This document shows positions 15,868 to 16,348 of a stretch of DNA of 64,000 bases, piece after piece. The stretch is from a virus. Taxonomy: Duplodnaviria > Heunggongvirae > Uroviricota > Caudoviricetes. Positions within the stretch are counted from its first letter, which is position 1, and each line of letters opens with the position of its first letter. The notes under the pieces are model-generated. The model saw only the letters and a list, made by a program, of their open reading frames with translations, was not told where the DNA came from and ran no database searches. The position numbers and the translations under genes were made by a program. The stretch is from the IMG/VR virus record IMGVR_UViG_3300033069_001798, positions 1 to 64,000 of that record; one strand, 5' to 3'.

Positions 15868-15877
15868 ATTGTACAAT
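15868..15877. promoter_or_regulatory. 10-bp palindrome ATTGTACAAT containing TACAAT, 3/6 nt upstream of ATG-ATG 15881/15884
   Basis: gATTGTACAATttgATGATG. An identical 10-mer occurs at 21849-21858 in front of ATG 21864. Confidence 0.4.
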
Positions 15878-15880
15878 TTG

Positions 15881-16348
15881 ATGATGGACCAGAAGAAGTC
15901 GATCGAAGAGTTTAAGCTGAGAGTCGGTGATCTCGTTGCTCTGAGCGGTCATGGGTTGAACAGCGGCGGCATCATCTACAGGATCGTAGAGGATCATCCG
16001 CCGGAGAAGCTCCAAGAACAGCCAAAAGACTCTCGGGGTCATTGGGGGTGGAGGCGCAGGAACATCAGCGCAAAGACTGGGAAGCCTGTCTCTTACGCGG
16101 CAGTCAACGGCTTTGTGTACATCGTTCCAGTCTTGAAGTTCGCTGAGTACCAGCCAAAGAACAGGCGAGGAAAGACGATCTCAACGCGGGGTCGTAAGCT
16201 CGTTGAGTATAGGCACGTTGAAACTCGTCTGCGCCGCGTTGACATTGTCGAGTTGGGTGTCTTCTACGCAAACTTCAAAGCGTTCGTGGAAAAAGAAGTG
16301 AAAAGATTGTCAGGAGAAGACGTTGACGAATCAGCCGTGGCAACATGA
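15881..16348 (+). CDS. Hypothetical protein with N-terminal GDLV-type module
   Basis: MMDQKKSIEEFKLRVGDLVALSGHG..GIIYRIV, then a basic ~100-aa tail. The track start is TTG 15869; ATG 15881/15884 is preferred. Confidence 0.55.
   Translation: MMDQKKSIEEFKLRVGDLVALSGHGLNSGGIIYRIVEDHPPEKLQEQPKDSRGHWGWRRRNISAKTGKPVSYAAVNGFVYIVPVLKFAEYQPKNRRGKTISTRGRKLVEYRHVETRLRRVDIVELGVFYANFKAFVEKEVKRLSGEDVDESAVAT

Follow-up and report, generated by a model that had tools for sequence, protein, structure and literature searches.

The DNA analysed here, a 64,000-nt stretch with 49% G+C (positions 1 to 64,000 of IMG/VR virus record IMGVR_UViG_3300033069_001798; hereafter the window), is part of an uncultivated large phage. 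In it, the hexamer TACAAT stands a few nucleotides ahead of a set of start codons, and it is probably the commonest −10 element (TAnnnT) of a bipartite, sigma-70-type promoter located near the ATG of about 15 genes, whose mRNAs would be leaderless or near-leaderless. The −10 element takes the forms TACAAT, TACGAT, TACAGT, TACCAT and TAAGAT, and the upstream box reads (A/T)GTGCA(A/C), or more loosely TG[ACT]A (TGHA). Directly observed are the motif, the spacing of its boxes, their link to gene starts and their conservation, the last in close relatives (91-97% identical): several contigs from Logan and ENA and L011, the one close contig in IMG/VR. More divergent orthologous intergenic regions were not obtained; relative L009 (59% amino acid identity) stops 67 nt short of the gene concerned.

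TACAAT hexamers ahead of start codons

The first-pass annotation of this DNA had picked out five TACAAT hexamers just ahead of + strand start codons, and all five are present: at 877-882, 14776-14781, 15872-15877, 17812-17817 and 21853-21858, with distances to the ATG of N6 (889), N9 (14791), N3/N6 (15881/15884), N6 (17824) and N5 (21864), respectively. As a bare word TACAAT is not enriched in the window, with 27 copies vs 19.6 expected. A motif count with a shuffled-sequence control shows that the enrichment lies ahead of ATG and upholds the earlier estimate that fewer than one TACAAT-N5/6-ATG should arise by chance: four are found vs 0.67 expected, a count reached by one of 300 shuffles. The broader TACAAT-N3-9-ATG occurs eight times vs 2.5 expected, the highest shuffle giving seven. 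The degenerate form TAnnnT peaks 6-9 nt ahead of predicted starts (8, 5, 2 and 7 occurrences vs about 1 per position elsewhere) and is found at N5-7 in 14 of 124 genes, where 3.7 are expected. A mere chance meeting of a −10-like word with start codons would fit a hexamer that is not over-represented by itself, and the N3-9 range was picked after the fact; the shuffles, the spacing peak, the gene starts behind 12 of 13 hits, the independent hits and the conservation pattern described below are all contrary to it, and we regard it as extremely improbable.

Each of the five sites was said to open a + strand unit after a gap or a strand switch. This holds for the sites at ATG 889 (40-nt gap), 15884 (about 30 nt), 17824 and 21864 (both strand switches), and is weaker for ATG 14791, where the gap is 15 nt, an AGGA Shine-Dalgarno sequence is present and the relatives have TACGAT. 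The restriction to TACAAT and to the + strand did not stand, as further TAnnnT hexamers occur on both strands (Table 1); they include two minus-strand cases, at ATG 44145 (TACCAT-N6) and ATG 48603 (TATCAT-N6), that had been noticed and ranked as weaker. ATGs 889, 15884 and 21864 begin small-family proteins with an N-terminal GD(L/M)V motif, and because this family motif follows them we take them to be true starts. ATG 17824 is likewise taken as a true start because its 51-aa ORF is conserved as a protein, the C-terminal peptide being kept in a relative whose neighbouring gene is 59% identical.

A second box at a 17-bp spacing and its conservation

Alignment of the TACAAT sites places a second box 17 bp upstream of the hexamer, with the sequences TGCACT, TGTACT, TGCATT, TGCAAA, TGTATA, TTGAAC and TTCACC. 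The combination TGYA-N19-TAnnnT occurs 25 times vs 9.6 expected, with none of 200 shuffles as high, and TGYA-N19-TAnnnT-N5-9-ATG occurs eight times vs 0.87 expected. When the inner spacing x of the TGYA motif is varied from 12 to 27, eight occurrences fall at x = 19 and 0-4 (mean 0.8) at the other values (Poisson p 2e-6). The looser TGHA-Nx-TAnnnT-N5-11-ATG gives 13 hits at x = 19 vs a mean of 2.9 at other spacings, and in 12 of these 13 the ATG opens a predicted gene, the ORFs ranging from 56 to 616 aa and lying on both strands. We also scanned all 256 4-mers at 39 offsets upstream of TAnnnT-N5-11-ATG opening an ORF of >=50 aa, with no prior assumption about the box; the top-ranked words were GTGC at −24 (p = 5.6e-7), AGTG at −25 and TGCA at −23.

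Three more, at 15884, 17824 and the GroEL gene at 25160, can be added if the spacer is allowed to be 16 bp or the box to be more canonical. The −10 hexamer carries A at position 2 and T at position 6 in 15 of the 16 listed sites, the exception being GACAAT at 12017, and an extended TGn precedes it at 4448, 25175, 37664 and L011:2392. The two boxes, the 17-bp spacer, the invariant A and T of the −10 and the TGn at four sites argue for a sigma-70-family architecture. Contiguous-block promoters of T7-like or phiKZ/AR9-like phage RNA polymerases were rejected, the spacer being conserved neither between sites nor between relatives.

Pooling 16 sites with their counterparts in the relatives, we find variable columns at 24 of 271 spacer positions vs two of 192 box positions (Fisher p=1.5e-4). 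Both box changes, TACAAT to TACGAT and TGCAAA to TGTAAA, fall within consensus or degenerate positions, and the A at −10 position 2 and the T at position 6 are unchanged. In relative L008 the site at 15868 reads TTGAAC-atttgcatcattgtgtg-TACAAT, with five spacer substitutions and with both hexamers and the 17-bp length intact. At the site 11994..12096 the boxes are likewise unchanged and five spacer columns are variable.

A weight matrix trained on the window sites only was then run on the 13.6 kb of L011 that lie outside the window. It scores 21.4 at L011:2392, where TGCAAA, a 17-bp spacer and TGgTACAAT are followed at N6 by the ATG of a 301-aa ORF, and 14.3 at L011:1438, 34 nt upstream of a tRNA-Leu(TAA) gene. 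This gene occupies L011 1478-1561 (+), about 6.3 kb upstream of the window start, and is preceded by TGTATAAT and TGTATA, a 17-bp spacer and TACAAT. Since expression of a tRNA gene takes a promoter but not a ribosome, the hexamer here points to a transcription rather than a translation signal. A further site on L011 (5293-5330, +; TGCACT, 17-bp spacer, TACCAT, N6) also scores 14.3; its ATG opens six codons only, and it could be a small-RNA promoter or a chance hit. The earlier suggestion that TACAAT is a −10 element is supported by the box 17 bp upstream, the conserved boxes, the tRNA-gene instance and the additional TAnnnT sites.

The hexamer might instead act at the mRNA level, as a ribosome-binding or translation-enhancing signal of a non-Shine-Dalgarno kind. 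It does occupy the place of the Shine-Dalgarno sequence in genes that lack one, and further AT-rich words (TACTTA, TTAC) are enriched ahead of starts. A second, required box 17 bp upstream, beyond any ribosome footprint, the instance ahead of a tRNA gene and the presence of the hexamer at strand switches, where a promoter is obligatory, make such a signal very improbable.

Leaderless-like geometry, possible read-through and the palindrome

At 10 sites the hexamer lies N5-8 from the ATG, too close for a Shine-Dalgarno sequence to fit; none of these has GGAG, GAGG or AGGA, and the start codon is always ATG. The distance is N5-7 at ATGs 889, 15884, 17824, 21864, 26438, 28516, 42228, 44145 and 44569, and the positional peak is at N6. 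The proposed division into leaderless first genes and Shine-Dalgarno-led internal genes fits this geometry, except that the site at 14776 is probably Shine-Dalgarno-led as well.

From these patterns we infer a polymerase or sigma factor that reads the GTGCA box, the transcription start sites and leaderless translation. RNA polymerase holoenzyme, carrying the host primary sigma or consisting of host enzyme redirected by a phage factor, would bind both boxes and start transcription some 6-7 nt past the hexamer, whose end lies 5-11 nt before the ATG at about 15 genes. At N5-7 the transcript would begin at, or 1-2 nt from, the A of the ATG, giving a leaderless mRNA translated without a Shine-Dalgarno sequence, and at N8-11 it would carry a leader of a few nucleotides only. 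These promoter-bearing genes may also be readable from upstream coupled transcripts.

A more elaborate version of this scheme, which we consider doubtful, is that the GTGCA box is recognised by a sigma or sigma-appropriation factor of the phage's own and marks a temporal class, with a dedicated leaderless-mRNA regulon in this lineage whose translation is possibly favoured by phage factors such as an IF1 homologue. A Pfam search covering 50 proteins of the window detected no family of sigma factors, RNA polymerases, MotA or AsiA. An IF1 homologue is encoded at 21013-21297 (−) (Pfam eIF-1a/IF-1, 3.2e-19) and adjoins the divergent promoter pair at 21828-21858; its best cellular matches, 54-60% identical, come from Deinococcus, Planctomycetota and others, a weak hint to the host.

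Several points weigh against the leaderless promoter reading. The upstream box is (A/T)GTGCA or TGHA rather than TTGACA, with near-TTGACA boxes only at 15849 (TTGAAC) and 17789 (TTCACC), and a canonical sigma-70 scan of the window gives a chance-level 20 hits vs 19.4 expected; the recognising factor is therefore uncertain. The motif definition derives in part from sites picked beside an ATG, a circularity that the spacing, 4-mer and independent-sequence tests reduce and do not remove. The relatives are only 3-9% diverged, so that the conservation test rests on 26 variable columns. Shine-Dalgarno-like purine runs lie between hexamer and ATG at 4463, 14791, 25160 and 48603, and a leaderless start would leave them unused. 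Finally, the same promoter type serves the major-vault-protein-like gene with a leader of about 65 nt, so a position next to the ATG is no inherent property of these promoters.

The last two points also favour the view that the promoters are real and that there are no functional leaderless mRNAs, the genes being expressed from long upstream transcripts by Shine-Dalgarno sequences or coupling and the closeness to the ATG reflecting packing that leaves no other non-coding space. On this view transcription might begin elsewhere, or transcripts with short leaders might go untranslated. Gene packing is indeed extreme, with many ATGA overlaps, and seven sites lie within long co-directional gene blocks, where read-through is available. 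At the strand switches of 17824, 21864, 21816 and 48673, however, there is no possible upstream transcript and no Shine-Dalgarno sequence, and the distances peak at N6-7, as expected for a start on the A of the ATG, instead of being spread over the gaps. We judge expression by read-through alone to be unlikely.

The 10-bp palindrome ATTGTACAAT, which had been reported as identical copies at 15868-15877 and 21849-21858, does begin at exactly these two places. In the orthologues of the first site it becomes GTTGTACAAT (L005 and L006) or GTGTGTACAAT (L008), with TACAAT and the upstream hexamer kept; because the relatives break the symmetry while keeping TACAAT, selection acts on TACAAT and not on the dyad. 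At the second site, 21828-21858, two divergent promoters share one 31-bp stretch of DNA (TGTACT/TACAAT on +, TGTACA/TACAGT on −), and the minus-strand TGTACA of the 21816 promoter lies within ATTGTACAAT. Since TGTACA fits the upstream box on one strand and TACAAT the −10 on the other, the palindrome is readily seen as a by-product, and we read it as incidental rather than as a functional unit. A palindromic operator for a dimeric phage regulator of units 15884 and 21864 would explain why a perfect 10-bp palindrome is found in two identical copies, although few would be expected by chance, and why the two sites match at 13 of 14 nt (GTT[G/C]ATTGTACAAT); the loss of dyad symmetry in L005, L006 and L008, the fact that the remaining sites have the TACAAT half alone and the overlapping divergent promoters at 21849 render it highly unlikely. 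A regulator may overlap the −10.

Genomic setting and known systems

The promoter-like sites of the window are listed in Table 1.

Table 1. Promoter-like sites in the window, with strand, boxes, spacing and the start codon that follows.
Site (strand)	Upstream box	Spacer	−10 hexamer	Distance to ATG	ATG	Gene or remark
854..891 (+)	TGCACT 854-859	17 bp	TACAAT 877-882	N6	889	82-aa gene; no Shine-Dalgarno; identical in L011
4425..4465 (+)	TGCACA	17 bp	TGg-TAAGAT 4448-4453	N9	4463	AAGAGG adjoins ATG
11994..12096 (+)	TGTACA	17 bp	GACAAT 12017-12022		12094	major-vault-protein-like gene; leadered
14753..14793 (+)	TGCATT	17 bp	TACAAT 14776-14781	N9	14791	
15849..15886 (+)	TTGAAC (or TGAACA)	17 bp (or 16 bp)	TACAAT 15872-15877	N3/N6	15881/15884	155-aa gene
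17789..17826 (+)	TTCACC	17 bp	TACAAT 17812-17817	N6	17824	51-aa ORF 17824-17979; strand switch
21828..21866 (+)	TGTACT 21830-21835	17 bp	TACAAT 21853-21858	N5	21864	66-aa gene; palindrome 21849-21858
21814..21856 (−)	TGTACA 21856-21851	17 bp	TACAGT 21833-21828	N11	21816	126-aa gene; TAACAT-N6-ATG is an alternative −10
25158..25197 (−)	TGAACA	16 bp	TGg-TAAAAT 25175-25170	N9	25160	GroEL homologue
26436..26474 (−)	TGAAAC	17 bp	TAAGAT 26451-26446	N7	26438	UvdE-like, 310 aa
28514..28552 (−)	TGTAAA	17 bp	TACATT 28529-28524	N7	28516	AAA ATPase, 616 aa from ATG 28516
37648..37687 (−)	TGCAAC	17 bp	TGg-TACAAT 37664-37659	N8	37650	56-aa ORF directly after RNA ligase stop codon
42226..42264 (−)	TGCAAC	17 bp	TACAGT 42241-42236	N7	42228	382-aa gene
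44143..44180 (−)	TGAACT	17 bp	TACCAT 44157-44152	N6	44145	185-aa gene
44567..44604 (−)	TGCAAA (relative: TGTAAA)	17 bp	TACGAT 44581-44576	N6	44569	135-aa gene
48601..48675 (.)	48633-48638, shared					divergent pair with one −35 position for both strands
48673 (+), of the pair	TGAACA		TACGAT 48656-48661	N11	48673	210-aa nucleotidyltransferase-like gene
48603 (−), of the pair	TGTTCA		TATCAT 48615-48610	N6	48603	AGGAGC in between

Some 55 small genes, most of which overlap, lie on the + strand between 1 and about 16.7 kb, and the major-vault-protein-like gene comes after them. A short region with genes on both strands (16.6-23 kb) leads into a long minus-strand block with genes for GroEL, an AAA ATPase, UvdE, an RNA ligase, an exonuclease, thymidylate synthase, thymidine kinase, NUDIX proteins, superoxide dismutase and dCMP deaminase. 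Megablast of 12-22 kb against phage records gave no nucleotide match, and protein searches returned distant matches only, to huge phages and a Microcystis phage. A scan of JGI metagenomes for relatives produced no match, and tRNA and Rfam scans of the window gave no hits.

The vault-protein-like gene (12094-14775, +) matches MVP_shoulder (Pfam, 2e-30), Vault repeats and SPFH; among phages it matches only stretches, 45% identical, of the huge phages LR756500, LR756501 and LR756503, of which LR756500, at 24% G+C, is unsuited to comparison with the window. Its leader contains a perfect inverted repeat at 12034-12054 (+), TTGCCTTGCA-TG-TGCAAGGCA, and a GAGG Shine-Dalgarno sequence before the ATG. 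The relatives keep the repeat and change at its centre only, and it may serve as a regulatory hairpin or as a binding site.

About 58 small ORFs (45-125 aa), located at window 1-12000 and 21864-22957 (+) and mostly joined by ATGA, form a fast-diverging multigene family. In 26 of them G[DE][LMIV][VIL] occurs within the first 20 residues; BLAST joins small groups only (8, 7, 2, ...), and there is no Pfam match. Promoters of the phiKZ/AR9 type, considered on account of the GroEL gene and the TTAC enrichment, were dropped: the TTAC positions are diffuse, and conserved C-terminal codons in this small-gene family account for much of the signal. A separate heptamer, ATACTTA, occurs nine times vs 2.2 expected (none of 100 shuffles reaches nine), at 17799, 22057, 35115, 37485, 44848 and 60763 and also at 35987, 48660 and 57205, and six of the nine copies lie 3-15 nt ahead of a co-directional start codon. 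A search for a common upstream box among the TACTTA/ATACTTA copies found none shared; ATACTTA could be a second promoter class, with RATACT as −10, or a translation signal.

Three further loci were noted. A GIY-YIG homing-endonuclease gene (16611-17480, −; Pfam 2.8e-14) sits between the + strand array and the 17824 unit; in L001, L004, L005 and L008 about 30 bp take its place (indel ~16714-17524), which marks the gene as a mobile insertion. At 48673-49305 (+), a lone + gene in the minus-strand block has its own promoter and encodes 210 aa with weak nucleotidyltransferase-family hits. Similarity to the IMG/VR relative ends directly after its −10 hexamer, so the gene may be an indel. The region 60000-62200 (−) is low in G+C (0.40 vs 0.49) and contains a 439-aa ORF with a dCMP deaminase as its C-terminal part and, towards the N-terminus, weak head-closure and endonuclease-like hits; this could be a fusion or a recently acquired gene.

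For this uncultivated large-phage lineage, the data yield a promoter model of (A/T)GTGCA, a 17-bp spacer and TAnnnT. The model would fix the starts at ATG 15884, the 51-aa gene 17824, ATG 28516, ATG 37650, ATG 48603 and the + gene 48673. Under this model, leaderless translation is predicted for roughly a tenth of the genes, and the likely hosts would be narrowed to bacteria with a good capacity for handling leaderless mRNAs. The compact promoter-plus-start modules, of about 40 bp, are open to direct testing.

The candidate promoters share with E. coli-type sigma-70 promoters (TTGACA-N17-TATAAT) and extended −10 promoters (TGnTATAAT) the two boxes, the 17-bp spacer, the invariant A2 and T6 and, at some sites, TGn, whereas the upstream box matches TTGACA at three of six positions only. 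In T4 middle promoters the MotA box (TGCTT), which a phage activator reads, has its centre near −30 and lies 11-13 bp from the −10. These promoters resemble the present ones in combining a host-type −10 with a non-canonical upstream box containing TGC; here, however, the box occupies the −35 position, and a 17-bp spacer separates it from the hexamer. A T4-type middle promoter (MotA/AsiA) was rejected on this box geometry and on the lack of MotA/AsiA families among the 50 window proteins. The lambda cI mRNA made from PRM starts on its AUG. That case concerns a single regulatory gene, whereas the architecture described here recurs genome-wide.

Closer parallels come from known leaderless genes. 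Experimentally validated leaderless promoters of D. radiodurans have a −10 motif about 6-7 bp before the ORF, most commonly TACACT (PMC12340547); TA-like signals mark leaderless genes, as inferred across Actinobacteria and Deinococcus-Thermus (PMC3160421), and 33% of C. glutamicum mRNAs are leaderless (PMC3890552). As in these TA-led genes, TAnnnT in the phage lies some 6-7 nt before the start codon with no Shine-Dalgarno sequence, and C is frequent as the third −10 base (TACACT in D. radiodurans; TACAAT, TACGAT and TACAGT here). A further common feature is a box 17 +/- 1 bp upstream, which is optional or adds strength. Unlike those bacterial genes, the ones considered here belong to a phage genome and make up only about 10% of its genes, their box is GTGCA or TGHA and not TTGACA or TTGNCA, and their transcription starts are predictions.

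In the Thermus phages phiYS40 and Lalka27a, which are large and lytic, most transcripts are leaderless, with the A or G of the initiator codon as their first nucleotide, and all promoters have TAnnnT, with classes that differ in the upstream part (bioRxiv 10.64898/2026.04.20.719267). The phage studied here is likewise large and has candidate TAnnnT promoters at initiator codons, and we found no sequence relationship between it and phiYS40 or Lalka27a. Both phages are in culture together with their host and have mapped start sites, whereas the start sites proposed here are predicted from sequence; leaderless genes are the majority there and would be a minority here, beside clear GAGG Shine-Dalgarno and coupled genes. 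Leaderless promoters are thus already known from Deinococcus-Thermus, Actinobacteria and Thermus phages, and it is the upstream box that is unusual in this phage.

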